Assembly (NCBI GenBank): GCA_944331915.1
Contig: CALVIR010000003.1
Span: forward strand, 3,294 to 67,293
Source of the DNA: an uncultured Bacilli bacterium
GTDB lineage: Bacteria > Bacillota_I > Bacilli_A > RF39 > UBA660
DNA length: 64,000 bases
Direction: 5' to 3'
The translations under genes were made by a program, and so were the position numbers. The notes under the pieces were generated by a model. The model did not search any database. It was not told the DNA's origin and saw only the letters and a list, made by a program, of their open reading frames with translations. Positions 5,863-31,870 of the stretch are shown here, piece by piece. Within the stretch, counting starts at the first letter, position 1; every line of letters starts with the position of its first letter.

Positions 5863-7452
5863 TTACTGTACTGTGTATGGATTATCCATAGTTCCAGAAC
5901 CACTTAAGATAACATCACTATTTAAATTGATAACGGGCCTTATTCCATCTGAATTCAATTGGGTACTAAAAATGAAAATAATATGCAAGGCATCTAATTG
6001 ATCCCAAATAGTAGGAACATTATTACGGAAATCCGCAGGAGTCATGGTATAGTACCTGAAATTATCAACACTAAGATAACTATCACTTGTAACCTCCAAA
6101 TTCTCTCCTGAAAAGATTAACTCATCGACTGTTATTAAACCAGCTTTAAGTTTATAACTACCACCATAACTTTCATTAGTATTAGGGCATATTAAAGTTG
6201 GAGAAATGTCTTCACCCTTCCCATCAACAAGTTGATGAATTCTATCATAACTACTAAAGCCCATATAATCTCTATTTATACCATAGTCTTTAACAGCAGT
6301 ATAACCACTACTATCACTACAAAATCTTCCTTCTATTACTTTATCATCATAAGCATTATTTTTTCCTAAAGTATTGTTATACCAGGTATCGACTTCTTTT
6401 TTAATAAAACTATCTACACCATTATCATAGGTATATCCTGTATATTTTGGATCATCATAGATTAAGTTATAAGGAGCAAATCCTATTATATATGAGGTAG
6501 CTAAGTCATTGTCATTAATACTTGTATTTGTCCCATTATAAATTAATCTTAGGCTACCATCACCATTTACTCTTACTATTTTCCAGTACATATCATCCCC
6601 ACTAGATGCTAACTTTATTTTATTACTTTCAGTACAATTAGAATTATATTCTTGACAACTCTCTAAACTTTGAAAATAACTATCATAATAATTATAGACA
6701 TAATAATCTTCATCATATTTACCAAATTTAATATTATTGTTGTCTATACTACCACGGAAATAATAACTTACTCCATCTTCATCGATGGCTTTGTATACTC
6801 CAGGTGTTATATAATTTGGATCAACGGTATCTGCGCCAAATTTCATACCGTTACTTGCATAATTAAACATATTATCTTTTGATACTTGAACTTTATTATC
6901 CACTAATATCTTATCTAAAGTACTAGCATTATACTTTACAAATAAATGGCCATTACTAGGTAGATTTAAATCATTATAATCTAGTCCCACACCTACTCCT
7001 AAAGGAATAGTAATTTCATTGTCACTAGTATTTCTTACTTTTATCTTATAAGTATTGCTACTACTAATTGTCCCTTGTTTTTCTAGATTAATTCCTGGTT
7101 CTTCTGGAGGAGTATTAAAATTAGCTTCTTCAAGGTAACCAAGTTCAATCTCAGAAGATAAATCACCTATATAATAAAAGTTAAATCTTGCTATTCTACT
7201 ATTAGGATTAGATAATGTAATAATAAATTCTTTAATACTATTGGCAGGAACTACAAGACTTTCAGTACTAACATTATCTACTTTTAAGTCATAACTTAGT
7301 GTTCCTGTGACAATACTTATGGCATTACTCTTTTCTTTTGTTACTGTAAACATTGCATAAGAAAAGTAACTTGTTAATAGTAGCAAAGTTATTAATATTA
7401 CACTTATTATATATATTTTTGATATCTTAGTATTCAATAATATTCTTTTCAT
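5863..7452 (-). CDS. surface-protein family member 1: TasA/SipW-cognate-like N-domain plus C-terminal 'GIRPVINL...GSGTMDNPY' domain
   Basis: N-terminus MKRILLNTKISKIY...SYFSYAMFTVTKEKSNAISIVTG resembles the SipW-cognate signal class. It shares the LGVGVGLDYNDLNLPSNGHLF core with the other copies. The C-terminal half is homologous to copy 4. Confidence 0.8.
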   Translation of the reverse strand: MKRILLNTKISKIYIISVILITLLLLTSYFSYAMFTVTKEKSNAISIVTGTLSYDLKVDNVSTESLVVPANSIKEFIITLSNPNSRIARFNFYYIGDLSSEIELGYLEEANFNTPPEEPGINLEKQGTISSSNTYKIKVRNTSDNEITIPLGVGVGLDYNDLNLPSNGHLFVKYNASTLDKILVDNKVQVSKDNMFNYASNGMKFGADTVDPNYITPGVYKAIDEDGVSYYFRGSIDNNNIKFGKYDEDYYVYNYYDSYFQSLESCQEYNSNCTESNKIKLASSGDDMYWKIVRVNGDGSLRLIYNGTNTSINDNDLATSYIIGFAPYNLIYDDPKYTGYTYDNGVDSFIKKEVDTWYNNTLGKNNAYDDKVIEGRFCSDSSGYTAVKDYGINRDYMGFSSYDRIHQLVDGKGEDISPTLICPNTNESYGGSYKLKAGLITVDELIFSGENLEVTSDSYLSVDNFRYYTMTPADFRNNVPTIWDQLDALHIIFIFSTQLNSDGIRPVINLNSDVILSGSGTMDNPYTVQ

Positions 7453-7690
7453 CTTCTACTCCTTATCAATTATCTTGACATTAATTATAGTTTACCCTAT
7501 TTCTTTAATTTTATGTGCTGGCTATATAACCAATTTACACCATGAAAAAGAACAGAATACTCCTATCCTGTCCTTATTGTATGATTAAAGAAGGTACTTA
7601 AGCTTCTAAAGTACCCCCCCCCCAGGTAACTTGTTGTAAACCGGATGTTCTTGTCATTTCATACCTTCTTTCTATTTTTTATTAACTTAA
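7453..7690 (-). promoter_or_regulatory. family leader cassette (copy 1): uORF with a C10/G10 tract (7614..7623), hairpin 7548..7575, plus an ~80-bp insert shared with copy 6
   Basis: A conserved ~160-bp element recurs 5' of all seven paralogs. The uORF MTRTSGLQQVTWGGGTLEA spans 7598..7657. Confidence 0.6.
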
Positions 7691-7723: not shown

Positions 7724-9493
7724 TTAATTACCGGCATTTAATACAAGACGAAAAGAACCATTATAACGACCTGAACTTATATAATTGTAATAATGAAAAA
7801 TTCCAGCATCAGTTTTGTCACCATAATAACCACCTCTAACAATCCAAGGGTATGCTGAATTGACCATTGTCCATGAATCGTTATACCAATTGTTAGTTTC
7901 ACTTAAAGCATGGGATAAACAAATTTTACCAGAACATGCGGTATTAGTATTGTCGCTTGTATATTGATCATAATATTTAGAGTCTATTATAATATTTTCC
8001 ATACCAATTCCGTTATAATTTGCCATTATAAATTCCCAGGCTCCACCTGACATATCATAGATTCCATAAATATTTCCAGTTGTTGAAGAGCCAGTACCAT
8101 TAATATCTATATCATAAGTATAATGACAACCATAATCAGTATTACCATTGCTTGGTTCTCCATAACTGCATCCAGTTATATATTGATCACTTTTATTTTG
8201 ATAAATCTCTTTATTAGCATTACTAAAATCGGTATTACCTAGTTTTCCATATCGACTTTGGGATAAGTAGGCTACTGTTGCCCATTCACTATTCTTCATC
8301 ATATGTGTATCTACACTACTACTAAATCCATATCTATTTCCTGTATCATTCATTTTTATTGATACATTAAAAGCATTACTTATACTTATATTTCTCCAAC
8401 TTATCACATTAGGTTTAATTATTGGATCTAAAGTAGTTGTATCTCCTCCTCCATATTCTGCATCAGGATTACTACTACTTGTTTCAAATTTTCCTACCCA
8501 GATTCCTGATAGTTCTTCATCACCAAAAGTAAAAGCATCTGGGGTATACCAACTATTACTATTCATTCCTTCATTTATATTATATCTAGCAGTTCCCTTT
8601 TCTTTGACATTTACTCTAACAAATTTTATATCTATCTCTCCTGGTAAAGCTTGAGTTGGAGAATTACTCTCACATGCTACTTGTCTACCATAGTAATTTG
8701 TTCCATCAATACTTGCTATAGAATAACTATATCGTGGTATCCATACCCACATAGTCTCTATATCATCCATATTTATTACAGTTCCTACACTAGCACTCTT
8801 ATAGCTCTCTCTTGTACTACTACTGACAGTTACAGCATTAGCCCATTTCTGTTCACTATAATTATACCAATCATTATTAGTATTATTTGTATCCGCTTTG
8901 ACCCAGTTGTTATCAACATATTTTACGGCAATCATATTACTATCTAACTCTGGAGCATTTACATTTTGACCATATTCTAAAAAAGAATGTTCATCAGTTG
9001 CTAAACTAAGATCATTATAATCAAGTCCCACACTTACTCCTAAAGTTATTGTTTGTTCCTTACTGCCATCATTATATATTACAATTTTATAAGTCTCAGT
9101 TGATCCTATTGTTCCAGTTATTTCTAGATTTACTCCAGTCTCTTCTGGTGGTTTTACACTTTCACAATCTATAATATAACCAGCTTCTACATTCGCATCT
9201 AAATTACCTTTATAATATAAATTAAATCTTGCTATTCTATTATTAGGATTAGTTAAAGTAACAAGAAATGTTTTTTCTTCTTTTGGTCCTATGACTAATT
9301 TATCTGAACTTACTCCATCTACTTTTAAGTCATAAGTTAGATTTCCTGTTACAATACTTATCGCATTACTTTTTTCTTTTGTTACTGTAAACATCGCATA
9401 GGAAAAGTAACTTGCTAATAGTAAGAAACTAATTAATACTGTACATAAAACATATATCTTTGATATCTTAGTATTTAATAATATTCTTCTCAT
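7724..9493 (-). CDS. surface-protein family member 2: TasA-like N-domain plus FGE-sulfatase-like C-domain
   Basis: The C-terminus carries FGE/SUMF1-like motifs: GIYDMSGGAWEF (compare GLYNxxGNxWEW), RGGYYGD (compare KGGSY) and SFRLV (compare GFRCA). Confidence 0.8.
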   Translation of the reverse strand: MRRILLNTKISKIYVLCTVLISFLLLASYFSYAMFTVTKEKSNAISIVTGNLTYDLKVDGVSSDKLVIGPKEEKTFLVTLTNPNNRIARFNLYYKGNLDANVEAGYIIDCESVKPPEETGVNLEITGTIGSTETYKIVIYNDGSKEQTITLGVSVGLDYNDLSLATDEHSFLEYGQNVNAPELDSNMIAVKYVDNNWVKADTNNTNNDWYNYSEQKWANAVTVSSSTRESYKSASVGTVINMDDIETMWVWIPRYSYSIASIDGTNYYGRQVACESNSPTQALPGEIDIKFVRVNVKEKGTARYNINEGMNSNSWYTPDAFTFGDEELSGIWVGKFETSSSNPDAEYGGGDTTTLDPIIKPNVISWRNISISNAFNVSIKMNDTGNRYGFSSSVDTHMMKNSEWATVAYLSQSRYGKLGNTDFSNANKEIYQNKSDQYITGCSYGEPSNGNTDYGCHYTYDIDINGTGSSTTGNIYGIYDMSGGAWEFIMANYNGIGMENIIIDSKYYDQYTSDNTNTACSGKICLSHALSETNNWYNDSWTMVNSAYPWIVRGGYYGDKTDAGIFHYYNYISSGRYNGSFRLVLNAGN

Positions 9494-9650
9494 TATTTAC
9501 TCCCTTCATTTAACCACCAAAAAGAACAGAATACTACTATCCTGTTCTTATTATATGATTAAAGAAGGTACTTAAGCTTCTAAAGTACCCCCCCCCAGGT
9601 AACCATTTGTAAACGGGTGTTAGTTCTCATTTTCATACCTTCTTTCTACT
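9494..9650 (-). promoter_or_regulatory. family leader cassette (copy 2): C9 tract 9588..9596
   Basis: Identical to the copy 3 cassette. Confidence 0.6.
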
Positions 9651-9683: not shown

Positions 9684-11459
9684 TCAATCATTAATTACGT
9701 TCATCACTAAACGGTAAGCGGCAAGATCATAACCAGTACCATTACCATGATCAAAATAGAAGACACCAGCTCCTGTACTATAATTATAGTTATCACCACG
9801 ACCTATCCATGGATATTCTATGTTCAAATTATTTTGATAATCTCCATACCAGCCTGCTGTTTCTGATAAATCATGGGATAAACATTCTTTTCCATTGCAA
9901 GCAGTAAAAATGTCACTACTTGTATATTTATCATAGTATTTAGATTCCGGCATTGATGTGAAACCAGAGTTACTTACTATTTCATTATAGTTACCCATGA
10001 CATATTCCCAGGCTCCACCAGACATATCATATACTCCATAGATAGTTCCTGTTGTTGAAGCTCCTGTTCCATCGATATTTATATCATAAGTATAATGACA
10101 ACCATAATCAGTATTTCCATTAGACGGTGCTCCATAACTGCATCCAGTTATATATTGATTACTCTTATTTTGATATACCTCTTTATTAGCATTACTAAAA
10201 TCTGTATTGCCTAACTTTCCATATTTACTTTGAGATAGATACGCTACTACGCCCCATTCACTATTCTTCATCATATGCGTATCTACATTACTACTAAAAC
10301 CATATCGATTACCATTATCATTCATTTTTAAACTTACGTTAAAAGCGGTCGATATGTATATGTTTCTCCAACTAGTAACATTAGGTTTTATCATTGGATC
10401 TAAAGCAGTTGTATTCCCTCCTCCATATTCTGTATCAGGATTACTACTACTTGTTTCAAACTTTCCTACCCAAATTCCACTTAACTCTTCATCACCAAAG
10501 GTAAAGGCATCTGGGGTATACCAACTTGTTATTTCTTCTCCTACTTTATATTTAGCACTACATCTATCTTTTTCTCCACTTGCAACAAATTTTACATCTA
10601 TTTCTCCTGGTAATTCTTGAGTAGGTACTGTTGTTAAATATTCTCCTTGTTTTCCATAATAATTGGTTCCATCAACACTACCTATAGAATAACTATATCT
10701 TGGTATCCATACCCACATGGTTTCTATATCATTCATATTTATTACGGTTCCGACATTAGCACTCTTATAACTTGCTCTTGTACTACTACTGACAGTCACA
10801 GCATTAGCCCATTTCTGTGCATCATAGTTATACCAGTCATTATTAGTATTGCTTGTATCTGCTTTAACCCAATTATTGTTTTCATATTTTACTGCTATCA
10901 TATTAGTATCTAATTCTGGAGCATTTGGTTCATTTGTATACTCCGCAAATAAATATCCATTACTTGGTAAACTTAAATCATTATAATCTAGTCCCACATT
11001 TACTCCTAAAGTTATAGTCTGTTCTTGGTTACCATTATTTGATATTACTAATTTATAAGTCTCACTTGATCCTACGGCATTTACTTTCTCTAGATTTACT
11101 CCACTTTCTTCTGGTGGTGTTTGGCTCTCACAATCTATAATATAACCTGCTTCTATATTTGAATCTAAATTACCTTTATAATATAAATTAAATCTTGCTA
11201 ATCTATTATTAGGATTAGTTAATGTAATAGTAAAGGTCTTACTTTCCTTTGGTCCTAGGACTAATTTATCTGTACTTACGCCATCTACTTTTAAGTCATA
11301 AGTTAAATTTCCTGTTACAATACTTATCGCATTACTTTTTTCTTTTGTTACTGTAAACATCGCATAGGAAAAGTAACTTGCTAATAGTAAGAAACTAATT
11401 AATACTGTACATAAAACATATATCTTTGATATCTTAGTATTTAATAATATTCTTCTCAT
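9684..11459 (-). CDS. surface-protein family member 3 (FGE-like C-domain)
   Basis: A close paralog of copy 2. The first ~90 nt and the 5' leader are identical at the nucleotide level. Confidence 0.8.
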   Translation of the reverse strand: MRRILLNTKISKIYVLCTVLISFLLLASYFSYAMFTVTKEKSNAISIVTGNLTYDLKVDGVSTDKLVLGPKESKTFTITLTNPNNRLARFNLYYKGNLDSNIEAGYIIDCESQTPPEESGVNLEKVNAVGSSETYKLVISNNGNQEQTITLGVNVGLDYNDLSLPSNGYLFAEYTNEPNAPELDTNMIAVKYENNNWVKADTSNTNNDWYNYDAQKWANAVTVSSSTRASYKSANVGTVINMNDIETMWVWIPRYSYSIGSVDGTNYYGKQGEYLTTVPTQELPGEIDVKFVASGEKDRCSAKYKVGEEITSWYTPDAFTFGDEELSGIWVGKFETSSSNPDTEYGGGNTTALDPMIKPNVTSWRNIYISTAFNVSLKMNDNGNRYGFSSNVDTHMMKNSEWGVVAYLSQSKYGKLGNTDFSNANKEVYQNKSNQYITGCSYGAPSNGNTDYGCHYTYDINIDGTGASTTGTIYGVYDMSGGAWEYVMGNYNEIVSNSGFTSMPESKYYDKYTSSDIFTACNGKECLSHDLSETAGWYGDYQNNLNIEYPWIGRGDNYNYSTGAGVFYFDHGNGTGYDLAAYRLVMNVIND

Positions 11460-11625
11460 TATTTACTCCCTTCATTTAACCACCAAAAAGAACAGAATAC
11501 TACTATCCTGTTCTTATTATATGATTAAAGAAGGTACTTAAGCTTCTAAAGTACCCCCCCCCAGGTAACCATTTGTAAACGGGTGTTAGTTCTCATTTTC
11601 ATACCTTCTTTCTATTATTATTTAT
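11460..11625 (-). promoter_or_regulatory. family leader cassette (copy 3): uORF 11546..11602 (MKMRTNTRLQMVTWGGVL), C9 tract 11554..11562, hairpin 11488..11515 followed by U5
   Basis: On the coding strand an AGAAGG RBS lies 7 nt before the second ATG. The G-tract sits inside the uORF. The hairpin is AAGAACAG-N12-CTGTTCTT followed by TTTTT, then the main RBS AAGGGAG. Confidence 0.6.
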
Positions 11626-11660
11626 TTATATATTAACATATTTTTAACTGATTAACAATA

Positions 11661-12155
11661 TTATCTATGTTTATTATTAGTATTACTAATTCCTAAAGCT
11701 GTAAAATAGTCAGTGATACTATGAAAGGAACTGATATCATAAGTATCATAATCGTTAACACAATCTATAATAGTTGTTTCTAAATTATCAAGGTTTATCT
11801 CTTCATTATAAATGTTTTTTAAACTTTCTTTTTGACTTTCTGTTACATCGTGTAAGGTAGGACTTACTATATGAATAGCATTATGATTAAGACCATCTTT
11901 TCCTATGTAGCTTATATCTAAAATAGTGATAAGATTAGCAAAAGAAGATATCTTATCTAAAGATGAGGTAAATTCTTCATCAGTTGTTAAAGTAAGACCA
12001 TGTAAACACCACCAAGCACTAGGATATATATCATTAGTAAATAAAGCATTATGACTATATTTTTCTTCGTTATCTCTTTCTTCAAGAGAAATATTTTCTT
12101 CATTACTTGTTTTTATAGAACCATCTGGTCCAATTAACGTAATTAAATGTTTCAT
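11661..12155 (-). CDS. hypothetical protein
   Basis: A 164-aa ORF I cannot assign to any family. Confidence 0.5.
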   Translation of the reverse strand: MKHLITLIGPDGSIKTSNEENISLEERDNEEKYSHNALFTNDIYPSAWWCLHGLTLTTDEEFTSSLDKISSFANLITILDISYIGKDGLNHNAIHIVSPTLHDVTESQKESLKNIYNEEINLDNLETTIIDCVNDYDTYDISSFHSITDYFTALGISNTNNKHR

Positions 12156-12156
12156 T

Positions 12157-12810
12157 TTAAAAACCTACTCTTAATATTTCAAAGCTAGCATTATTACTAA
12201 CTCCATAACTTAGAGCTTCACTGCTAGTTTGAAAAAGTAAATCAAACATAAATTTTTGATCTTTTCCAATATCAGGTCCACGATCTAAGACAATACCTAT
12301 AAAATCTCCTACATTAGTATTACTAACTTTAACTATAGTACCAAAAGGATATTCTCTACCACCAGATAAAATTCTTATTTCACCATATTCTTGATCAAGA
12401 TAAGTTATAGTATCAGTAATACAGTAACCATAAGCAGTGTGGGTACCAATATCAGCACCATAACCACTCATTCTTCCAGTAAATATCTCATTATTAGTAT
12501 TAACATTCTCATCTTGATTAGTAGTTTCTTCATTAGGTTTAAGCTCTTCTTGATAGTTTATATTTTTATCAACTGACTCCACTATCTCGTCAATTGGCTC
12601 TTCTTCGATAATATTCTCTTCTTCTATTGGTTCTATTTCCTCAACAGGAATAGATTCTATTATAGGTTCTTCTTTAGTTATAGTTTCACTCTTTACATAA
12701 GTTATTTTGTTATTTACATCTATATTTGTAATAGTAGGACTGGTTGTACTGACAAGTAAACAGCATCCCATAAAGAGTATAGCGTTTATAATATAAACAG
12801 TTATTTTCAT
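12157..12810 (-). CDS. lipoprotein with C-terminal 3D (YuiC/MltA-like) domain
   Basis: Lipobox-like FMGC signal. The C-terminus GYGADIGTHTAYGYCITDT...GTIVKV...GIVLDRGPDIG is typical of 3D/DPBB cell-wall proteins. Confidence 0.55.
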   Translation of the reverse strand: MKITVYIINAILFMGCCLLVSTTSPTITNIDVNNKITYVKSETITKEEPIIESIPVEEIEPIEEENIIEEEPIDEIVESVDKNINYQEELKPNEETTNQDENVNTNNEIFTGRMSGYGADIGTHTAYGYCITDTITYLDQEYGEIRILSGGREYPFGTIVKVSNTNVGDFIGIVLDRGPDIGKDQKFMFDLLFQTSSEALSYGVSNNASFEILRVGF

Positions 12811-14335: not shown

Positions 14336-15040
14336 TTACTTATCTATCTCAAACAAGAAATCTTCATGACGATAAAATTGTTCTTCTTCATATCTAGAGT
14401 AAATAGCAAAAGGACGATAAAAGTGTAATTCATTATTAACAACATATAAAAAGACATTATCACTATATGAGTCTATACCACGAAGATCTAAGAAACAGTC
14501 ATAATTACATTCAGCTTCTGTAAAATACATACTTTCTAACTCTTGTTTATAATAATTAGTAAATTCTTGTTCTAGAGTATTAACAATATCACTTTCAGTA
14601 ATAGAAAACTCTTTTAGCAAATCAGTATCTGTTACTAAATTACCAGTATCAAGATTAAAGTTATAGGTTCTAATAATAGTTTTAGGATAGTTGTTATCGT
14701 TTATATCATTATAGATATAGAAAGTAGCTAAGGATAGATAATTATCATTAAGATCAACTTGATAAGTAAACATACTTTCATAGTCAAGAGCATTATTAAA
14801 GTCTTGTTCTATTTCTTCATTAACTTTCTTAGCATCATCACTACTAAATTTAACATTTGGTAAGTATGAGGTAAAGTTAGTAGTATCATCTTTATGTTCT
14901 TCTTTAATACTAAAATAGGTATCTATACTATTACTTGTATTACTAGTAGCTAAAACGGAAATAAGAATGATAATAACAGTACCTATTATTAAGAATAAAA
15001 TAATTTTTATATATGGTTTATATTGTTCTAATTCCATCAT
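14336..15040 (-). CDS. hypothetical membrane-anchored protein
   Basis: A 234-aa ORF with an N-terminal TM segment and a D/E/Y/N-rich remainder. Confidence 0.5.
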   Translation of the reverse strand: MMELEQYKPYIKIILFLIIGTVIIILISVLATSNTSNSIDTYFSIKEEHKDDTTNFTSYLPNVKFSSDDAKKVNEEIEQDFNNALDYESMFTYQVDLNDNYLSLATFYIYNDINDNNYPKTIIRTYNFNLDTGNLVTDTDLLKEFSITESDIVNTLEQEFTNYYKQELESMYFTEAECNYDCFLDLRGIDSYSDNVFLYVVNNELHFYRPFAIYSRYEEEQFYRHEDFLFEIDK

Positions 15041-15041
15041 A

Positions 15042-15434
15042 TTATTCCCCTATTCCGCCATAGTTTTGTTCTAGATTTTCACGTTCTATTTGAATATTGG
15101 CTATTTCGACAATTTTAACAGTATTATTAGTAGTATTAATGGTAAATTGATAAGTGTATCCTTCTGAAGATACAAATCTACCAATATAGTTATTATCTTG
15201 ATAATAGTTATTTTCTTCGGTATAAGTTAAATCTTGGTTATAAAGATTTAATCTTTTTAGTTCTTGATAGTAGTTGTTATTTAGTTCTTTTATAGTACTA
15301 TTAGATAGAGAACTGTTTTCGTTTTTTAAAGCTTCAATGGGAGAAAATGTTTCGTTTCTAGGCCAAAAGATAAAGATGATTAGGATTATTAGTACTACGA
15401 CAATACCTATAATGGTTAGACTTTTTTTATTCAT
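15042..15434 (-). CDS. hypothetical membrane-anchored protein
   Basis: A 130-aa ORF with an N-terminal TM segment. Confidence 0.5.
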   Translation of the reverse strand: MNKKSLTIIGIVVVLIILIIFIFWPRNETFSPIEALKNENSSLSNSTIKELNNNYYQELKRLNLYNQDLTYTEENNYYQDNNYIGRFVSSEGYTYQFTINTTNNTVKIVEIANIQIERENLEQNYGGIGE

Positions 15435-15448
15435 ATATTTACCTCCTC

Positions 15449-16417
15449 TTATACTAGTTTTTGTCCAAAGATCCAGTACATAGCGGCGGTTGGATGGATC
15501 TCAGTATACATGTCAAAAGCTCTATTGTTATAGTCTTTAGTAATAGCATTATATTGATTTGGGTCCTGGACTAATATTTTACCGTCAGCTGTTATACCAC
15601 TTAGAACAATAATGTGGCCGCCTTTGGTAAATAAACCAGGTCTTTGGGAACACATTACGGGTTGTCCTGCTTTTATCGCTGAAATAACAAGTTCTGGATC
15701 AGTTGTAGAGACAACCTCACCAAGGCCATAGTAGTCTGCTAAAGCTTTAGGAAAGGCCCATGACATACCGGCACCATTTACATAGTAAGGCTGTCCCATT
15801 TCATTAACAACTTGGTCAGGAGTAATATTTTTTCCTGTTAAATAAGAAGCGACCATAGCACCTGAGGTGAAACCACAACCACCTAAAGCGATGGTGGAAT
15901 TACCTAATTTTACAGTAGGATAATCACCTTGATAATAAATTGGCATTCCGGTTAAGATGTTAGCAGCGGTATTAACAACAACCTCAGTAGCAGCTTTAAA
16001 GTCTTCTACCGCTTCAAAATCAGCCATTAGATCATGGAAAGAACTACTATTATAAGTTGGAGCAGGTGTATTTCTTATTACCTCATCTGTTGCTAAAGCT
16101 TCTTGCCAACAAGCACCTACATTGTATAGAGTTGTATTTTCATTAGAAACAAGAGTAAAGAAATTAGTAACAAGATTTACAACAGTAGGAAGGAAGAAAA
16201 TAATAAGAGCTGCTAAAAACTTAGTTAAAATACTCTTTAGTCCATTCTTTTTATCAGGATTAAGCATATTAGAGATTAAGGTTAAAGTTAAAGCAACAAT
16301 CAATATTATTGGTACAACGATACAAACAATAGAAAAAATACGTTCTAAAGTAGCTAAAGTACCAGCTAAAGCATAATCAGAGCAAACACTATCTAAAATA
16401 TAAAACATATATATCAT
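15449..16417 (-). CDS. membrane protein with C-terminal peptidase C39-like (papain-fold) domain
   Basis: GGCGFTSGAMVASYLTGKNITPDQVVNEMG plus a downstream GGHIIVLSG resemble the Peptidase_C39_2 Cys/His motifs. The N-terminus has several TM helices. Confidence 0.55.
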   Translation of the reverse strand: MIYMFYILDSVCSDYALAGTLATLERIFSIVCIVVPIILIVALTLTLISNMLNPDKKNGLKSILTKFLAALIIFFLPTVVNLVTNFFTLVSNENTTLYNVGACWQEALATDEVIRNTPAPTYNSSSFHDLMADFEAVEDFKAATEVVVNTAANILTGMPIYYQGDYPTVKLGNSTIALGGCGFTSGAMVASYLTGKNITPDQVVNEMGQPYYVNGAGMSWAFPKALADYYGLGEVVSTTDPELVISAIKAGQPVMCSQRPGLFTKGGHIIVLSGITADGKILVQDPNQYNAITKDYNNRAFDMYTEIHPTAAMYWIFGQKLV

Positions 16418-16683: not shown

Positions 16684-18402
16684 CTATCCTAGGACATAAG
16701 GTGAACTTACAGTTCCATCACCACTAGTGAAACCGGTATCAGTTAACACATTAATAACCGGACGTACGGCGTAGTTGTTGTTACTGCTACCGCTTCCTAT
16801 TCCTAGATAATCACCACTCATAGCCCACACTGAAACCATACTATCTCCGAAGTCGCACGGCGTCATAGTCCAATAATCTGCTCCATTTTCTCCTGGATTC
16901 AAGTAACTATCTGTTGTCACTCCTGGATTTTCTCCTGCTAATACTAGTTCATCTGCTGTTATTAAGCCTGCTTTTAATCTATAACTACCTCCATAGCTTT
17001 CACTTATTGATGGACATTTTAACGTTGGAGCATTTGCTTTGGCATAATTAGTCATACTTTGCCCTAATCTGTCATAACTTGAAAAAAAATACCAATCACC
17101 CATATCTGGAAAGTCATAATCTGTATCTTGTTTATATCCGCTACTATCACTACAAAATCTTCCTAATATTACATATCTATCATAATTTTGATTACTTCCT
17201 AAAGTATTATTATACCAAGTATCTACCTCTTTTTTAACAAAAGAGTCTGTTCCATTATCATAGGTATATCCTGCATATTTTTGATCATTATAATACTCTA
17301 AATTATATAATGACATTCCTACAAAGTTGGCATCATCTATAGAACTATCTGTTGCTGTAGGATTTGTTCCGTTATAGATTAATCTTAATGAACCATCTCC
17401 ATTTACTCTTATTATTTTCCAGTACATCTTATCTCCTGCTGATGCTAATTTTACTCTATTACTCTCATTACAACTTGAATAATGTTCTTGACAACTTTCT
17501 AAGCTTTGAAAATACTGATATCCAGAATTATATACATAATATACATAATAATCACTTTGATACTCTCCAAACTGAACATTATTATTAGTGACATTTCCTC
17601 TAAAGTAGTAACTTATGCCATCTTCATCTTCGGCTTGAAATAGACCATTTGTTACATATTCTGGATTTGTACTTGGTCCATTTTCCATATCAAAGTATCC
17701 ACCATTACTAGCATAATTGAACATATTAGTTTTTTCTTCTTGTAACTCGTTATTAGCTAAAATTGTTTGTACAGTCTCTGGGACATATTTATCTCCATCT
17801 TTACCATAAACATTTATTTGGACACTAAATTGTAAATTGCCTCCATCTCCTTGAGGATTATATTCTTCTGTTACATACATTCTAAGACGATAATTATTAG
17901 TTTCACTTGAGTTCATACTACTTGTATATAAACTCATTTCTCCTGCTGGTCTTCCTGTATAATTGTTAGCATTAGCTTCTTCACTATATGTCTCTGGTAA
18001 CATTAAAGCTTCTTCACTACCATCACTGTTTAATTTAGTTAGATATAACTTGATATTAGAGCCATCTATCTTTCTATCGCTTGTCGTTATATCTTTTGCA
18101 CTGATTTCATAGTTGATATTAACATTACCAGTGATATTACTTGATATCGTAAAATCAAAGTATTCTCCCTCTGTTAATCTAACTGTACCTGTTTTATCTG
18201 TTGTTGGTAATGCCCCACTCATATTTATAATATTACTAGTTTCAGTATAAGTCATCGTAATTGCTCCACTTGTAATACTGTTAACAGTATCTCCTGTATC
18301 TGTATAACTAAAGGCAGCATAACTTACTCCTACTACTGCTACAATCATTATCAAGATTAAACCTAAAATTATTATTTTTTCTTTTCTTTTTTCCATAAAC
18401 AC
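16684..18402 (-). CDS. surface-protein family member 4 ('GVRPVINV...GDGTVSSPY' C-domain type)
   Basis: N-terminus ...GVSYAAFSYTDTGDTVNSITSGAITMTY is a very close match to the SipW-cognate signal class. The C-terminal half is homologous to copy 1. Confidence 0.8.
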   Translation of the reverse strand: MFMEKRKEKIIILGLILIMIVAVVGVSYAAFSYTDTGDTVNSITSGAITMTYTETSNIINMSGALPTTDKTGTVRLTEGEYFDFTISSNITGNVNINYEISAKDITTSDRKIDGSNIKLYLTKLNSDGSEEALMLPETYSEEANANNYTGRPAGEMSLYTSSMNSSETNNYRLRMYVTEEYNPQGDGGNLQFSVQINVYGKDGDKYVPETVQTILANNELQEEKTNMFNYASNGGYFDMENGPSTNPEYVTNGLFQAEDEDGISYYFRGNVTNNNVQFGEYQSDYYVYYVYNSGYQYFQSLESCQEHYSSCNESNRVKLASAGDKMYWKIIRVNGDGSLRLIYNGTNPTATDSSIDDANFVGMSLYNLEYYNDQKYAGYTYDNGTDSFVKKEVDTWYNNTLGSNQNYDRYVILGRFCSDSSGYKQDTDYDFPDMGDWYFFSSYDRLGQSMTNYAKANAPTLKCPSISESYGGSYRLKAGLITADELVLAGENPGVTTDSYLNPGENGADYWTMTPCDFGDSMVSVWAMSGDYLGIGSGSSNNNYAVRPVINVLTDTGFTSGDGTVSSPYVLG

Positions 18403-18560
18403 TTACTCCTTTCAATTTAACCATAAAAAAGAACAGAATTTTTTTATCCTGCTCTTATTCCATGATTAAAGAAAGTACTTAAGCTTCTAAAGTACCCCCC
18501 CCCAGGTAACTTGTTGTAAACGGGTGTTAGTTCTCATTTTCATACCTTCTTTCTATCTTT
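18403..18560 (-). promoter_or_regulatory. family leader cassette (copy 4): C9 tract 18495..18503
   Basis: Same element. The uORF is MKMRTNTRLQQVTWGGVL. Confidence 0.6.
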
Positions 18561-21765: not shown

Positions 21766-22010
21766 AAATCTATGTTCTAAGGACGAATCTTTTCGTGGTA
21801 CCACCTTAGTTCATAGATTTAACTATCTTAATTAGATAACGGTTTTACCCGGCTTTATCTTATCCATAAAGCACAACTTGAAAGTGATCCGAAATAAGTT
21901 CCTTTGTTAATTTCCACCAACCATTAACTCTCTTGAAAATTTCCTTATTTCCGTCTTTCGCACTTGTTTTAATAAACAAACTATAACACATTGTTTCTTG
22001 GTTTGGCAAT
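21766..22010 (-). promoter_or_regulatory. T-box riboswitch leader of ileS
   Basis: On the minus strand, AACTAAGGTGGTACCACGAAAAG matches the T-box/antiterminator consensus AANNNGGGTGGNACCGCG about 30 nt before the ileS ATG. An AGAGAG (GA-motif) lies upstream, and an ATC(A) candidate specifier sits in ...CGGATCAC... Confidence 0.55.
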
Positions 22011-22401: not shown

Positions 22402-24177
22402 TTATTCTATACAAAGAATAGTTCTAAATGAGTTATCTATACGCACGCCACCTAAACTATATGTAGCACCATAAGAAAACAGACCAGAATCAACTTGATC
22501 ATAGTAGTATCCACCTCTTACTAACCAGGGATACTCATTATTTATCATATTATTAATATCTTTATACCATTCTGAAGTTTCTGATAAGGCATGGCTTAAA
22601 CATTCTTCTCCATTGCATGCTGTTAATATGTTATCTGTTATATATTTATCATAATACTTTGACTCGGGAAAAATGGTAAAATCAGCATTACCTAATATAT
22701 CATTATAATTACCCATAACATATTCCCAGGCTCCTCCTGATGTATCGTATATTCCATAAATATTGCCGGTTGTTGAAGCTCCGGTTCCATTTATATCTAT
22801 GTCATATGTGTATTGACATCCATAATCGGTATTGCTATTTGATGGCATTCCATAACTACACCCAGTTATATACTCTTCACTTTTATTTTGATATATTTCT
22901 TTATTAGCATTACTAAAATTTGTATTACCTAACTTTCCATATTTACTTTGGGATAGATATGTTACAGCTCCCCACTCACTGTTTTTCATCATATGGGTGT
23001 CGATAGTACTACTAAATCCATATCTATTTCCTTCATCATTCATCTTTAAACTTACATTAAAAGCATTACTTACATTTATACATCTCCAACTTGTTACATT
23101 TGGTTTTATCATCGGATCTAACTCAGTTGTATTCCCTCCTCCATATTCTAATGAAGGATTAGAACTACTTGTCTCAAACTTGCCTACCCAGATTCCACTT
23201 AGTTCCTCATCTCCGAATGTAAAGGCATCTGGGGTATAATACTCTTTTGCTCCAGTTGTCGTTATGTATTTTGCATTTCCCCTATCTTTTATTTTATCAC
23301 TTACAAATCTTATATCTATTTCTCCTGGTAATTCTTTAGTTGGTTCACTTTCTAAATAACAGCCTTGCTTTCCATAATAATTAGTTCCATCAACGCTTGC
23401 AATACTATAACTATATCTTGGTATCCATACCCACATTGTTTCAATATCATTCATATTTACTATGGTTCCTACAGAAGCATTTTTATAATTTTCTCTTGTT
23501 GAACTACTTACTGTTACCGCATTAGCCCATTTTTGCTCATTATAGTTATACCAATCATTTTTAGTGTTACTTGTATCAGCTTTAACCCAATTGTTATCTA
23601 CATATTTTACAGCTATCATATTAGTATCTAACTCTGGTGCATTTGGTTCATTTACATATTCTTTAAATAAATGTCCATTACTTGGCAAACTTAAATCATT
23701 ATAATCAAGTCCTACTTGTACCCCTAATTCTATCACTATTTCATTACTAGAATTATTTTCTACCATTATTTTATATTTATTACTACTACCTATACTTTTA
23801 CTTGCTTCTAAGTTTACTCCAGTTTCTTCTGGTAAATTAGTAGTTTCACAATCTTTTATATAACCAGCATTTACCTCTGTTGGTATTTCATTTAAGTAAT
23901 AAAAATTAAACCTAGCTATTCGATTATTGGGATTTGTTAATGTAATAATAAATTCTTCAGCACTATTGGCTTTAACAACGAGGTTTTGACTAGAATTGCC
24001 ATCTACTTTTAAATCATAAGTTAAATTACCTGTGACAATACTTATGGCATTACTTTTCTCCTTACTTACTGTAAACATGGCATAGGAAAAGTAACTTGCT
24101 AATAGTAATAAAGTAATTAATACTGTGCCTAAGATATATATCTTTGATATTTTAGTACTTAATAATATTTTCTTCAT
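22402..24177 (-). CDS. surface-protein family member 5 (FGE-like C-domain)
   Basis: A paralog of copies 2 and 3. Confidence 0.8.
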   Translation of the reverse strand: MKKILLSTKISKIYILGTVLITLLLLASYFSYAMFTVSKEKSNAISIVTGNLTYDLKVDGNSSQNLVVKANSAEEFIITLTNPNNRIARFNFYYLNEIPTEVNAGYIKDCETTNLPEETGVNLEASKSIGSSNKYKIMVENNSSNEIVIELGVQVGLDYNDLSLPSNGHLFKEYVNEPNAPELDTNMIAVKYVDNNWVKADTSNTKNDWYNYNEQKWANAVTVSSSTRENYKNASVGTIVNMNDIETMWVWIPRYSYSIASVDGTNYYGKQGCYLESEPTKELPGEIDIRFVSDKIKDRGNAKYITTTGAKEYYTPDAFTFGDEELSGIWVGKFETSSSNPSLEYGGGNTTELDPMIKPNVTSWRCINVSNAFNVSLKMNDEGNRYGFSSTIDTHMMKNSEWGAVTYLSQSKYGKLGNTNFSNANKEIYQNKSEEYITGCSYGMPSNSNTDYGCQYTYDIDINGTGASTTGNIYGIYDTSGGAWEYVMGNYNDILGNADFTIFPESKYYDKYITDNILTACNGEECLSHALSETSEWYKDINNMINNEYPWLVRGGYYYDQVDSGLFSYGATYSLGGVRIDNSFRTILCIE

Positions 24178-24330
24178 CTCTTACTCCCTTTATTTAACCA
24201 CAAAAAAGAACAGAATACCTCTATCCTGCTCTATTCCATAATTAAAGAAAGTACTTAAATGTCTAAAGTACCCCCCCCCGGTAACTTGTTGTAAACTTGA
24301 TACTCTTGCCATTTTCATACCTTCTTTCTA
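24178..24330 (-). promoter_or_regulatory. family leader cassette (copy 5): C9 tract 24271..24279, lacking the flanking A, giving a longer uORF
   Basis: Same element; here cccccccccggtaac replaces cccccccccaggtaac. Confidence 0.55.
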
Positions 24331-25281
24331 CATTTTATTAGTATTAGTATTACTATTTATATTTTGAGCTACTGATGGAGATGTTGCAAACATATCTTCT
24401 GCAGCTGCTATTCTTGCATTATTTAAAGATGATGATTGTAAATCTTCGATTATTGATTTTTTACTATTTGCAGCCATATTCAAGTCTTCTTGTTTCATAG
24501 CATTTTGACTTTCTAATATTCTTCTTTTATCTTGAACAGAGTTAAGATGATTTTGTTTCATTTCAGCTATCTTATTATTAATTTTATCTGTTACTTGCTC
24601 TTTCGCTGTTCTTTTAAATCTTCTTAAAGTATCCATAGTAACTTTACCCAAAAAGCTTTTAACAGTAACTACTGGTGGTCTTCCTATTCTTTTCTTATCT
24701 TCTATTATTTCTTGTTTTTTAGTCTCAACAAAGTCTTTAATTTGATCTTTCTTAGTACTTAAAGCTTGTCTTATTTCAGCACTTTTTAATTGAATAGATA
24801 AAGCGATACCTTTAATTCTTAAATCAATAGTAGTTTTTTCTCTTATTTGTTTTAAGGCTTCATTTTTAACTTTACCTAGTTTAGACTGTGCACTTGATAC
24901 TTTATTTGTAACATTAGTAGAAATATTAACAACTCTTTTATTAACATTCTCTACTATAGCTTGCTTAGTTTCTTTTATATCTTCAGTTACTTGTTTCTTT
25001 TTTTCTAATACTGCTTCTTTTGTTTCGTTTATTACTTTATTTTTCTTATTAATTATTTCTTGTCTCTTAGTATCTAAAGCATTAATAGTCCGGTTATATC
25101 TTTCAATAACAACATCTTGTTGAAAGGTATTAAAAGACTCTATTACATTGTTAGAAATAGTTGCAATTCTATTTTTTCTATACTCTATTTTCGCTTGTTT
25201 ATAATTATGAATGCTTGTAAATAATAATTGAAGGCTCTTTTCAATCTCTCTTTCCTTTTCTCTTAAATCTTGTTCTGTCAT
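24328..25281 (-). CDS. hypothetical coiled-coil protein (K/E/Q-rich)
   Basis: A 317-aa ORF with heptad-like repeats. Confidence 0.5.
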   Translation of the reverse strand: MTEQDLREKEREIEKSLQLLFTSIHNYKQAKIEYRKNRIATISNNVIESFNTFQQDVVIERYNRTINALDTKRQEIINKKNKVINETKEAVLEKKKQVTEDIKETKQAIVENVNKRVVNISTNVTNKVSSAQSKLGKVKNEALKQIREKTTIDLRIKGIALSIQLKSAEIRQALSTKKDQIKDFVETKKQEIIEDKKRIGRPPVVTVKSFLGKVTMDTLRRFKRTAKEQVTDKINNKIAEMKQNHLNSVQDKRRILESQNAMKQEDLNMAANSKKSIIEDLQSSSLNNARIAAAEDMFATSPSVAQNINSNTNTNKM

Positions 25282-27706: not shown

Positions 27707-29560
27707 TTATGGCAAGGCCAATGTGAATGGATTTTGAAGGGTTCCGTCACCTGATGTTATTATTACATTTTGTTTTAGATTTAGAGATGGGCGAACACCA
27801 TTAGCAACCGTGGAACTAAAGTAGTCCATACGACCATAGTAGCTCACACTCCACACATAAGACGTACTGTATGGTGTTAAAGTCCAGTAATGTGTATTAT
27901 TATCATTACTATCAAATTGCCCTGCCATTAATTCGCCATAACGTAATAATCCTACTTTTGCTGTAGTTATACTTGATGTTAATGTAGTACCAGTTGTATC
28001 TGTATACTTCGCTAGTTTATAGTTAGTTCCTGCTCCTATTGTTCCAAGATACCAGGTTGTGTTATCTTCTATTATTGATATATCTTCATCTGTTAGATAA
28101 TTATTATCTGTATTCAAATAATCATTATTCAAAAATGAACCAATTGTAGTACTACTAGAATATTCAATACCGTTACCAAAAGTTGAGGAAATAAAACTAC
28201 CATCTTTTTTTAATGGTTCAGCACTAGTTATTTTTGTTCCTGTTCCATTTTCATGGTTTACTATCCGGTACAAATTGTTTTCTCCTGTTCCAAACCTTAT
28301 GTACTCGCCACTATATCTACTTGAAAGTAGTGTTCCTAATAGATTAGTATCATCATCTCCATTAAGTCGATATGGATTATCTATTGTCCCATCACCGCCG
28401 GCAATTTTAACGCTAGATTTTAGATTTATGGATGGTCTAACGCCATTCGTATATACAGTACTATAGCCTCCCGTACGGCCATGGTCCACATTCCAAATGT
28501 AAGATGCATCACTTGGTGTTAATGTCCACCAATTTATGACATTATTTAAATAGCCATTAATAGCTGTTGTGTCACTATAACTCATGGTATATTCGTAAAT
28601 ATTTAATAGTCCAACAGGATCAGTTACCAAAGTTGTTTCTGTTGGTTTCGTTGTCTCATCTGTCATCATAGTTGCATTCCATATACTATCCATTTTGATA
28701 AATTTCTCTGGTTCTCTTAAATTACCTAAGAAACCATCTACACTTATATCATTTAACCATTCTTCCATATAACTTCCTTCAAATGATGCACTACCACTTG
28801 AATAATTAATGGCACTTATATTCCATTGTGTCACTAATTTAACACTATTATCACTTGGATCTATACTTACGGCTCTCCATAGTTTTCCGCTATACCAAAT
28901 ATAGTTATTTGGATCTGTTCCTGTTATAAATGTCTGATCAGGATCACTTGTATTTATCGCTCCATTTTCTCCTACTCCATCTAAAAGCACCTCTGCAACA
29001 GTCTGTCTTTCTTGACTTACCTCTACTCTTAACTTTCCTTTAAATACTTGTCCTGAATAGTTCCCATCTACCTCATCGGTTATCCAGATGTTTAAACTAT
29101 ATGTATTTGTCTCTCTTCCTTCTATTGTCCCACTATCTAAAACTCTATTAGGATTAGTTCCAATCCTTGTTAATAGGGTTGCTCCACTATCAGTACCATT
29201 TTTATTAAGGTTATACTTTAAAAAATTATCATCTATTCTTGTATCAGTACTATCTATCTCCATATCATCTAAATAAATTGTATAATCTACCGCTTTATCA
29301 CCATTATTTACTAAAGTAAATGTTGATGGTGTTAAACTCATCCCTTTGCTATCACTTACTCCTATAGCAGTATCTAAATTTATTCCTTCACTAGTTTCAT
29401 TCAATATTAAATCTAAAGTATCTATCTTTACTATTTGATCAGAGCCATTTAATGTTGTACTAAGATAAGCATAGGTTAATCCTAATACTGCTAGTAAGAC
29501 TATTAAGATACTTATTACAATTACTATAGTTTTTCTATTTTGTTTATTTTCTTTCATCAC
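27707..29560 (-). CDS. surface-protein family member 6: divergent signal, two tandem 'WWTLTP...GVRPS(I/L)NLK...GDGT..NP(Y/F)' repeats
   Basis: The N-terminus LTYAYLSTTLNGSDQIVKIDTLDLIL is still SipW-cognate-like. It has the same 5' leader cassette. Confidence 0.8.
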   Translation of the reverse strand: MMKENKQNRKTIVIVISILIVLLAVLGLTYAYLSTTLNGSDQIVKIDTLDLILNETSEGINLDTAIGVSDSKGMSLTPSTFTLVNNGDKAVDYTIYLDDMEIDSTDTRIDDNFLKYNLNKNGTDSGATLLTRIGTNPNRVLDSGTIEGRETNTYSLNIWITDEVDGNYSGQVFKGKLRVEVSQERQTVAEVLLDGVGENGAINTSDPDQTFITGTDPNNYIWYSGKLWRAVSIDPSDNSVKLVTQWNISAINYSSGSASFEGSYMEEWLNDISVDGFLGNLREPEKFIKMDSIWNATMMTDETTKPTETTLVTDPVGLLNIYEYTMSYSDTTAINGYLNNVINWWTLTPSDASYIWNVDHGRTGGYSTVYTNGVRPSINLKSSVKIAGGDGTIDNPYRLNGDDDTNLLGTLLSSRYSGEYIRFGTGENNLYRIVNHENGTGTKITSAEPLKKDGSFISSTFGNGIEYSSSTTIGSFLNNDYLNTDNNYLTDEDISIIEDNTTWYLGTIGAGTNYKLAKYTDTTGTTLTSSITTAKVGLLRYGELMAGQFDSNDNNTHYWTLTPYSTSYVWSVSYYGRMDYFSSTVANGVRPSLNLKQNVIITSGDGTLQNPFTLALP

Positions 29561-29780
29561 AGTTCACTCCATTATCAATTATTTTGACATTAATTATAGT
29601 TTACCCTATTTTTTTAATTTTATGTGCTGGCTATATAACCAGTTTACATGCTAAAAAAGAACAGAATACTCCTATCCTGTCCTTATTGTATGATGAAAGA
29701 AAGTACTTAAATGTCTAAAGTACCCCCCCCCAGGTAACTTGTTGTAAACGGGTGTTAATTCTCATTTTCATACCTTCTTT
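29561..29780 (-). promoter_or_regulatory. family leader cassette (copy 6): C9 tract 29723..29731, plus the ~80-bp insert shared with copy 1
   Basis: The uORF is MKMRINTRLQQVTWGGVL. Confidence 0.6.
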
Positions 29781-29879
29781 CTATCTTTAATTTAATACAA
29801 GTTTAACATAAATTATAATTAACAACAAGATATTTTTATCTTCAAATTAAAGAGAAAAAAATATTTTAACTCAATTTAT

Positions 29880-31706: not shown

Positions 31707-31870
31707 CTTTTACTCCTTTCATTTAATCGCAAAAAAGAACAGAATACTCCTATCCTGTTCTTATTCTATGATTAAAGAAAGTACTTAAGCTTCTAAAGTA
31801 CCCCCCCCCAGGTAACTTGCTGTAAACGGGTGCTAGTTTTCATTTACATACCTTCTTTCTATCTTTAACT
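31707..31870 (-). promoter_or_regulatory. family leader cassette (copy 7): C9 tract 31801..31809
   Basis: Perfect hairpin; the uORF is MKTSTRLQQVTWGGVL. Confidence 0.6.

Follow-up and report, generated by a model that had tools for sequence, protein, structure and literature searches.

The analyzed stretch of DNA, in the following termed the window, comprises 64,000 nucleotides of contig CALVIR010000003.1 from an uncultured Bacilli bacterium (assembly GCA_944331915.1). Its minus strand contains seven leaders, almost identical to one another and about 130 nt long, each located 5′ of one of seven paralogous genes. The main genes behind leaders 1 to 7 start at positions 7452, 9493, 11459, 18402, 24177, 29560, and 31706, also on the minus strand. 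In each copy the order of elements is AGAAAGAAGGTA, ATG(AAA)ATG, an upstream open reading frame (uORF), a run of G residues, the uORF stop codon, the box TACYTTCTTT, a hairpin, a second Shine-Dalgarno (SD) sequence, and the ATG of the main gene. A first-pass annotation of the window had reported these seven elements, and all of them were recovered where it had placed them, on the minus strand.

7545 to 7673, minus strand: leader copy 1, from box A to the terminator end, with G10 at 7614 to 7623 and the main ATG at 7452; controlled gene 5863 to 7452
9519 to 9647, minus strand: leader copy 2, with G9 at 9588 to 9596 and a short uORF; controlled gene 7724 to 9493
11485 to 11613, minus strand: leader copy 3, from box A to the terminator end; controlled gene 9684 to 11459 (591 aa)
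18425 to 18554, minus strand: leader copy 4, with G9 at 18495 to 18503 and a short uORF; controlled gene 16684 to 18402
24202 to 24329, minus strand: leader copy 5, from box A to the terminator end (24190 to 24329 with the uORF end), with G9 at 24271 to 24279; controlled gene 22402 to 24177
29653 to 29782, minus strand: leader copy 6, with G9 at 29723 to 29731 and a short uORF; controlled gene 27707 to 29560
31731 to 31860, minus strand: leader copy 7, with G9 at 31801 to 31809 and a short uORF from the second ATG; controlled gene 29880 to 31706

The G run comprises nine residues in all window leaders except copy 1, which has ten. G or C runs of four nucleotides occur 49 times in the window (28.7% GC) and runs of five 8 times; runs of 6–8 nt are absent, and seven runs have 9–10 nt. 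All seven lie inside leaders, and no other run in the window exceeds 5 nt. By our own arithmetic, about 0.003 runs of at least nine residues would be expected at this GC content, which excludes chance for the leader tracts. The leader is thus a real element, far beyond chance. Its parts are given for copy 3, where “long frame” denotes the reading frame without a stop between the tract and the loop of the terminator.

11630 to 11658, minus strand: putative promoter read from the sequence, TTGTTA, 17 nt, and a TG-extended -10 region (TGTTAATAT)
11602 to 11613, minus strand: box A, AGAAAGAAGGTA
11546 to 11596, minus strand: uORF from the second ATG, stop included, MRTNTRLQMVTWGGVL; first ATG at 11602
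11563 to 11580, minus strand: box B, GTTTACAAnnnGTTACCT, codons L-Q-x-V-T followed by the T of TGG, conserved in nearly all of the 72 leaders described below
11554 to 11562, minus strand: G9 tract (tGG GGG GGG Gta)
11527 to 11536, minus strand: box D, TACCTTCTTT, a pyrimidine box read as ACY TTC TTT in the long frame
11485 to 11515, minus strand: intrinsic terminator with a 12-bp stem, a GTAG loop, and a U tract, folding with −13.4 kcal/mol
11457 to 11473, minus strand: SD sequence (GAAGGGAG) and ATG of the main gene

Box A is identical in 7/7 window copies, has the form of a long SD sequence for the uORF, and is complementary to box D. The uORF had been described as opening with ATG-AAA-ATG. 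The SD sequence and the double ATG are present, but the likely start is the second ATG, because it is in frame in 7/7 copies, 7 nt past the SD sequence, and the first one meets a stop codon immediately in copies 1 and 7. The uORF comprises 16–18 codons (copy 3, MKMRTNTRLQMVTWGGVL), copy 5 being the exception described below, and with G9 its stop follows 5 nt past the run. Beyond the tract, a variable segment leads to box D in the form (T)TACYTTCTTTC, followed by a spacer of about 12 nt and a hairpin of 10–12 bp with a U tract. This hairpin (AAGAACAGGATA-N4-TATTCTGTTCTT, then three to four more T) starts 30 nt past the uORF stop. The leader terminators were missed by a promoter/terminator scanner because they have fewer than three G-C pairs; the scanner was uninformative in this AT-rich DNA.

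The frame states of the window copies are not uniform. Six copies are in a short frame (five with G9, one with G10). In copy 1, the uORF (MTRTSGLQQVTWGGGTLEA) ends at +13 after G10. Copy 5 lacks the T before G9, which by itself puts its uORF in the long frame. This uORF has 42 or 40 codons (24318 or 24312 to 24190), crosses the whole terminator (24202 to 24232), and ends 13 nt short of the main ATG. Frame arithmetic on the window leaders agreed with what had been predicted for altered tracts: G8 would place the stop at +48, in the loop between the arms at +38 and +56, and G10 would place it at +13, leaving about 22 nt to the stem. Box A of copy 5 (24318 to 24329) is overlapped by the stop codon of the preceding gene (24328 to 25281), whose 317-aa product has no Pfam family, so that leader 5 would be an intercistronic switch without a promoter of its own. 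The same layout was seen in L009, L030, L136, and L142 (sequences outside the window are cited by L numbers).

Further leaders were collected from a protein-based scan of GTDB genomes, from two contigs obtained by exact-protein look-up, and from one metagenome pattern scan, in which about 60 of the 88 matches were chance matches without a leader. An nhmmer profile search that required a G run of at least five residues yielded 72 leaders from more than 20 metagenome-assembled genomes (MAGs) and metagenomes, including human gut. All 72 are located on the gene strand, 5′ of genes of the same family, in uncultured gut Bacilli related to Candidatus Onthousia. An SD sequence and an ATG in frame with GTT-ACC-TGG (...LQxVTWGG) were found in about 64 of the 72. 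The uORF ATG lies 15–93 nt upstream; its frame is open throughout, and the other two are closed within 2–50 nt. An extended -10-like sequence, TGnTAnnnT, is present about 32–36 nt 5′ of the uORF ATG in 40 of 61 leaders, and the remaining ones, including window copy 5, begin right at the stop codon of a gene 5′ of them. The idea that the poly-G run acts as a promoter spacer was rejected, since the promoter-like site lies 5′ of box A and the tract about 45–110 nt downstream, inside an ORF.

After the tract, one frame stops at +5 (TTTAG or TTTAA), the second at +13 or +16, and the third has its first stop only 48–69 nt on, between the terminator arms. In 53 of 55 distinct 3′ regions, no stop interrupts the ACY-TTC-TTT frame of box D between the tract and the terminator loop; of 110 cases in the other two frames, only 1 was open, and these frames contained 2–8 stops each. 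The first stop of the long frame lies 8–11 nt before the 3′ arm of the terminator, and the distance from the tract to box D is 18, 21, 24, 27, 30, or 39 nt in most sequence classes. A purely structural RNA would not give such frame-specific absence of stops and spacing in multiples of three. Comparison of the leaders thus indicates that their design is selected.

The stem of the terminator also varies in a manner typical of an RNA structure. Its consensus comprises 10 pairs. At one position, C-G is replaced by U-A in 15 of 34 sequences, at another A-U by U-A, and the remaining single changes lead mostly to G·U pairs, with a hairpin energy of about −13 kcal/mol. The stem changes that had been noticed in window copies 1, 4, 5, and 6 are A-to-G changes which form G·U pairs, as proposed. 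The compensatory changes support an RNA hairpin on the gene strand. A competing antiterminator was sought, but the best structures pairing box D with the 5′ arm reached only −2.3 to −4.0 kcal/mol compared to −13 kcal/mol for the terminator, and a trp-like antiterminator (2:3 hairpin) was rejected on these energies.

Box D lies outside the terminator and has other potential partners. Its duplex with box A comprises 11 bp including one G·U pair and has an energy of −11 to −13 kcal/mol; the median is −13.2 kcal/mol, whereas 34 other ORFs gave −4.9 kcal/mol for their SD regions. Box D resembles the 3′ tail of Bacillota 16S rRNA (anti-SD) with C-to-U changes. It can also form a hairpin with the G run (−13.3 kcal/mol; G9 can pair with CUUUCUUUC), which is the pairing found in the minimum free energy fold, and in five copies it pairs with the SD sequence of the main gene (about −10 to −11 kcal/mol). 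These pairings, together with boxes A, B, and D being near-invariant in nucleotides with no third-position wobble, would suit a riboregulator working by structure alone. In such a regulator, a ligand, a protein, or a small RNA would act on alternative pairings of box D (box A as one partner, the G run together with the adjacent strand as the other) and so set termination or translation, the uORF being incidental. The pairing of a poly-G run with a pyrimidine box would then resemble the pyrG leader of Bacillus subtilis, in which reiteratively added G residues pair with the pyrimidine-rich strand of the terminator; in the leaders described here, the run that can pair with a CU-rich segment is template-encoded and inside an ORF, and the terminator does not include the CU box. 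Rfam revealed nothing in the window at gathering score except two tRNAs, and with E values up to 10 only chance-level matches over the leader and no curated riboswitch or cis-regulatory RNA family. Since boxes A and D are invariant, covariation cannot support the A:D helix, and pairing of box D with the 5′ arm is weak. A regulator based on structure alone would leave unexplained the stop pattern, the spacing in multiples of three, and the SD sequence with an in-frame ATG over variable distances, and we consider it quite improbable.

Box B is conserved at the nucleotide level without clear third-position wobble and may have a peptide or RNA role beyond spacing. The possibility that it is a direct-repeat protein-binding site (GTTTAC-N5-GTTACC, 11-bp spacing) was set aside, as it lies inside a conserved ORF and downstream of the SD sequence. 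In classes with long uORFs (L001, 9700–9790; L026, L032, L037, L061, L095, L103, and L114), one to three copies of CAGGGTAAAATAATTCGTCAA, encoding the peptide QGKIIRQ, are located between the start codon and box B.

The features described above suggest the following mechanism. Transcription would start about 15 nt 5′ of box A or enter from the upstream gene. A ribosome would load at the strong SD sequence in box A and translate the uORF into the G tract, and the number of G residues would fix its frame past the tract. With G9 or G6 the uORF would stop 5 nt past the tract and with G10 or G7 13–16 nt past it; the ribosome would then leave at least 22–30 nt before the stem, the hairpin could form, and transcription would end (OFF or low expression). 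With G8, G11, or G5, the uORF would run through box D to a stop at the hairpin apex, and the same would hold for a G9 tract that lacks the T before it, the situation in copy 5. The A site of the ribosome would end at this apex, so that the 5′ arm would be covered while RNA polymerase transcribes the U tract; the ribosome trailing the polymerase would block the hairpin, and the structural gene would be read (ON). As there is no competing RNA antiterminator, direct occlusion by the ribosome is the simplest reading and implies that the long frame is the ON state. From these features we infer that the uORF is translated and in which direction the switch works, and we regard a frame-dependent interplay of ribosome and terminator as probable. 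The attenuation controlled by tract length that the first-pass annotation had proposed is supported in its frame logic by the stop pattern, the SD sequence and ATG, the covarying terminator, and tracts from G5 to G11, but it is most likely direct ribosome occlusion, an RNA antiterminator being neither needed nor found. On this basis, copy 5 (gene 22402 to 24177) is predicted to be the ON copy and the other six are predicted to be OFF. Exactly one long-frame leader was likewise counted in the other genome with at least six leaders, an agreement that is anecdotal.

The same logic has been demonstrated experimentally for the pil1 and pil3 operons of Streptococcus gallolyticus (Danne 2014, PMC3894217), where 13–23 GCAGA units lie inside a translated leader ORF 5′ of an intrinsic terminator. 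If the repeat number is in frame, the leader peptide ends at least 28–39 nt before the hairpin and expression is low, whereas out-of-frame numbers give a longer peptide with a stop within or after the hairpin, so that the ribosome, for which that work gives a footprint of about 30 nt, blocks the hairpin and expression is high (PMC3894217). The statement of the first-pass annotation that the arrangement is not a standard described one is therefore wrong. The leaders studied here, as read from sequence, share with pil1 and pil3 a repeat in a leader ORF with its own SD sequence and start codon, an intrinsic terminator, a stop codon placed by repeat number, putative surface-structure targets, and a Bacillota host. 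They differ in that the repeat is a mononucleotide run of G5–G11, in that a conserved, mobile-looking module precedes many paralogues (seven in 64 kb) and not two pilus operons, in that nearly every leader has its long-frame stop at the apex of the hairpin, and in having an anti-SD-like box D complementary to the uORF SD sequence, for which there is no described counterpart. In our literature search, pil1/pil3 was the only system with the leader-repeat and terminator logic, and none had a homopolymer in the leader. New are thus the homopolymer repeat, the conserved cassette before many paralogues, the additional anti-SD-like box, and the uncultured gut lineage, but not the logic itself.

The tract itself resembles the poly-G contingency loci of Campylobacter jejuni, Neisseria, and Haemophilus, in that it has G8–G11, occurs in a low-GC genome, and sets a reading frame by its length; G9/G10 ON/OFF tracts are known from C. 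jejuni (PMC11955535). In those loci the tract is located in the structural gene or in a promoter spacer, whereas here it lies in a uORF and would act through a terminator, so that the structural protein would never be truncated. A further likeness exists to the attenuation of amino-acid and pyrimidine operons by leader ribosomes. In the trp and pyrBI leaders of Escherichia coli, the position of the leader ribosome relative to an intrinsic terminator decides on read-through, and the direct-occlusion geometry proposed here resembles pyrBI. The leaders studied here, in contrast, have no regulatory codons and no 2:3 antiterminator, and the input would be the genotype, i.e., the tract length, not tRNA charging or nucleotide levels.

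Tract length varies among the 72 leaders: G9 was found in 32, G10 in 18 (25%), G8 in 7, G6 in 6, and G5, G7, and G11 in 3 each. Five leaders on five contigs have about 150 flanking columns that are identical except for three substitutions, but five different tract configurations, namely G9+CAG, G9+AG, G11+TA, G6+CA without the T, and TGA+G6+CA, so that each of the three frame states is represented, as is a locked stop. The protein encoded by L001 and L002 is the same, with a G8 tract in the former and G9 in the latter. In the proposed mechanism, the length of the tract would most likely be altered by slipped-strand mispairing during DNA replication, so that paralogues would switch independently and heritably. 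For the complete model including this phase variation within a population at the DNA level, we have somewhat more confidence than doubt.

The same uORF and terminator logic would also apply if the frame were changed in RNA, either because RNA polymerase slips on the 9-nt G run or because tRNA-Gly slips by −1/+2 on GGG-GGG-G in the ribosome. In that case, a leader with an unchanging G9 would yield a defined, perhaps adjustable proportion of long-frame ribosomes, i.e., a graded, non-genetic control, which could, e.g., sense how the rare GGG codon is decoded. G9 is indeed the modal length and invariant across same-strain assemblies, GGG is the rarest Gly codon here (7.9%), and tRNA-Gly can re-pair in any frame on a G run. 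Slippage in RNA is nevertheless unlikely in our view: the tract is not constant, near-identical leaders that differ only at the tract are expected of a mutable DNA repeat and not of tuned recoding, a stimulatory structure conserved at a fixed distance was not found, and transcriptional slippage is best documented on A/T runs. The first-pass annotation had also allowed for the poly-G runs being sequencing or assembly artefacts. Homopolymer length errors do occur, especially in long-read assemblies such as L001 and L002, but 72 leaders taken from numerous independent studies, Illumina as well as long-read, contain the run between the same flanks, and it is identical across same-strain assemblies, so that an artefact has a negligible probability.

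Several observations weigh against the mechanism as proposed. The G8/G9 difference between L001 and L002 stems from long-read assemblies, in which homopolymer errors are common. In same-strain assemblies with 100% identical flanks, 13 copies at 7 loci showed no tract difference, these being consensus sequences that are blind to minority variants; one such assembly matches the window over 17.4 kb. The 40-aa product of the long uORF of copy 5 is annotated as a gene on 10 public contigs in an identical state, and high-frequency switching is thus not seen at the consensus level. Similarly, the search for tract polymorphism at orthologous loci via contigs encoding the proteins revealed same-state copies only. 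Interrupted tracts (GGGAGGGGG, GGAGGGGGG, TGAGGGGGG, and GGGGGCGG) occur among the leaders L048, L112, L087, L164, L009, and L032; an interruption should make a tract much less mutable and lock its state. Past some leaders lies a palindrome or a second promoter-like site, the latter of which would bypass the switch. The near-invariance of boxes B and D points to roles that simple ribosome occlusion does not explain. Finally, the leader was said to precede every family member, which holds within the window, but elsewhere it was present at only 42 of 89 assessable family genes. The leaderless genes have a plain promoter or are the second gene of a tandem, and the cassette is thus modular and not obligatory. 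In L032, the terminator is lost in addition to the interruption of the tract.

The annotation of the long-frame product as a gene in public assemblies, and the promoter-like site after some leaders, would also be expected if the cassette were an independent, phase-variable gene that encodes a small protein (long-frame length, 35–45 aa), ends in its own terminator, and has no bearing on expression of the downstream gene. In five of the seven window copies, however, the gap between terminator and main ATG is 22–25 nt and contains only the SD sequence, so that the main gene could be transcribed only by read-through. The cassette is always located 5′ of one gene family, and the conserved part of the long-frame peptide is the nucleotide-conserved box D. 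A separate small-protein gene is thus very improbable. In copies 1 and 6, the gap is about 92 nt (7453 to 7544 and 29561 to 29652, minus strand) and contains an imperfect palindrome, TGGTTATATAGCCA, and a -10-like sequence, GGGTAAACTATAAT; its counterpart in L003 is a perfect palindrome, CTGGTTATATAACCAG. Palindrome and -10-like sequence in copies 1 and 6 may represent an operator plus a second promoter that bypasses the leader.

With respect to box D, a conjecture is that it limits initiation at the uORF to the first, polymerase-coupled ribosome or adds a translational lock. In a more elaborate, rather doubtful version, the leader would be a three-frame device that goes beyond the two-state pil1 switch. 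Pairing of box D with the uORF SD sequence, the G run, or the main SD sequence would restrict the uORF to a pioneer ribosome and/or gate translation of the structural gene, G9 would additionally allow slippage at the RNA level, and heritable changes of frame in DNA would mix with non-heritable ones in RNA or at the ribosome and together set expression across a large repertoire of putative surface proteins in uncultured gut Bacilli.

If the proposed switch operates, a lineage of uncultured Bacilli from chicken and human gut would turn single members of a very large membrane-anchored family on and off by means of a compact, portable poly-G cassette. The mechanism, so far described for two pilus operons in a single streptococcus, would be extended to a homopolymer in a multigene setting reminiscent of antigenic variation. 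For metagenomes, a simple rule would follow, according to which the tract length modulo 3 relative to the box D frame gives the expression state of a paralogue.

The protein encoded behind copy 3 has an N-terminal transmembrane helix and a beta-rich domain, and its C-terminal region is weakly similar to the FGE-sulfatase domain. Searches of Pfam, NCBIfam, and PDB sequences gave no confident family for the controlled proteins: in Pfam, FGE-sulfatase remained below threshold, and DUF6273 was above the cutoff in copies 6 and 7. Because these assignments are weak, we use “surface protein” for the family only as a putative label. The AlphaFold model had a pLDDT of 45, with the beta-rich domain in an otherwise poor model, and was too poor for a fold search. 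The closest relatives of the proteins were found in MAGs of Candidatus Onthousia (Bacilli incertae sedis, chicken gut), and more than 7,800 proteins matched the family in a homology search. Many public contigs end inside or beside a leader (L013, L017, L043, L087, L090, L121, L122, and L159). Evidently the repeated cassette breaks short-read assemblies, and the size of the family per genome is therefore probably underestimated in MAGs.

The family genes have housekeeping neighbours, namely murE, ileS, and genes for a dUTPase and a ClpX-like ATPase. A T-box leader is located 5′ of ileS (21776 to 21972, minus strand); it scored 91 bits compared to the Rfam gathering score of 93 and was missed at the default threshold. 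Between the controlled genes (15449 to 16417, 14336 to 15434, and 11661 to 12810), the window encodes a Peptidase_C39_2-like protein and also contains several small ORFs that match no family.
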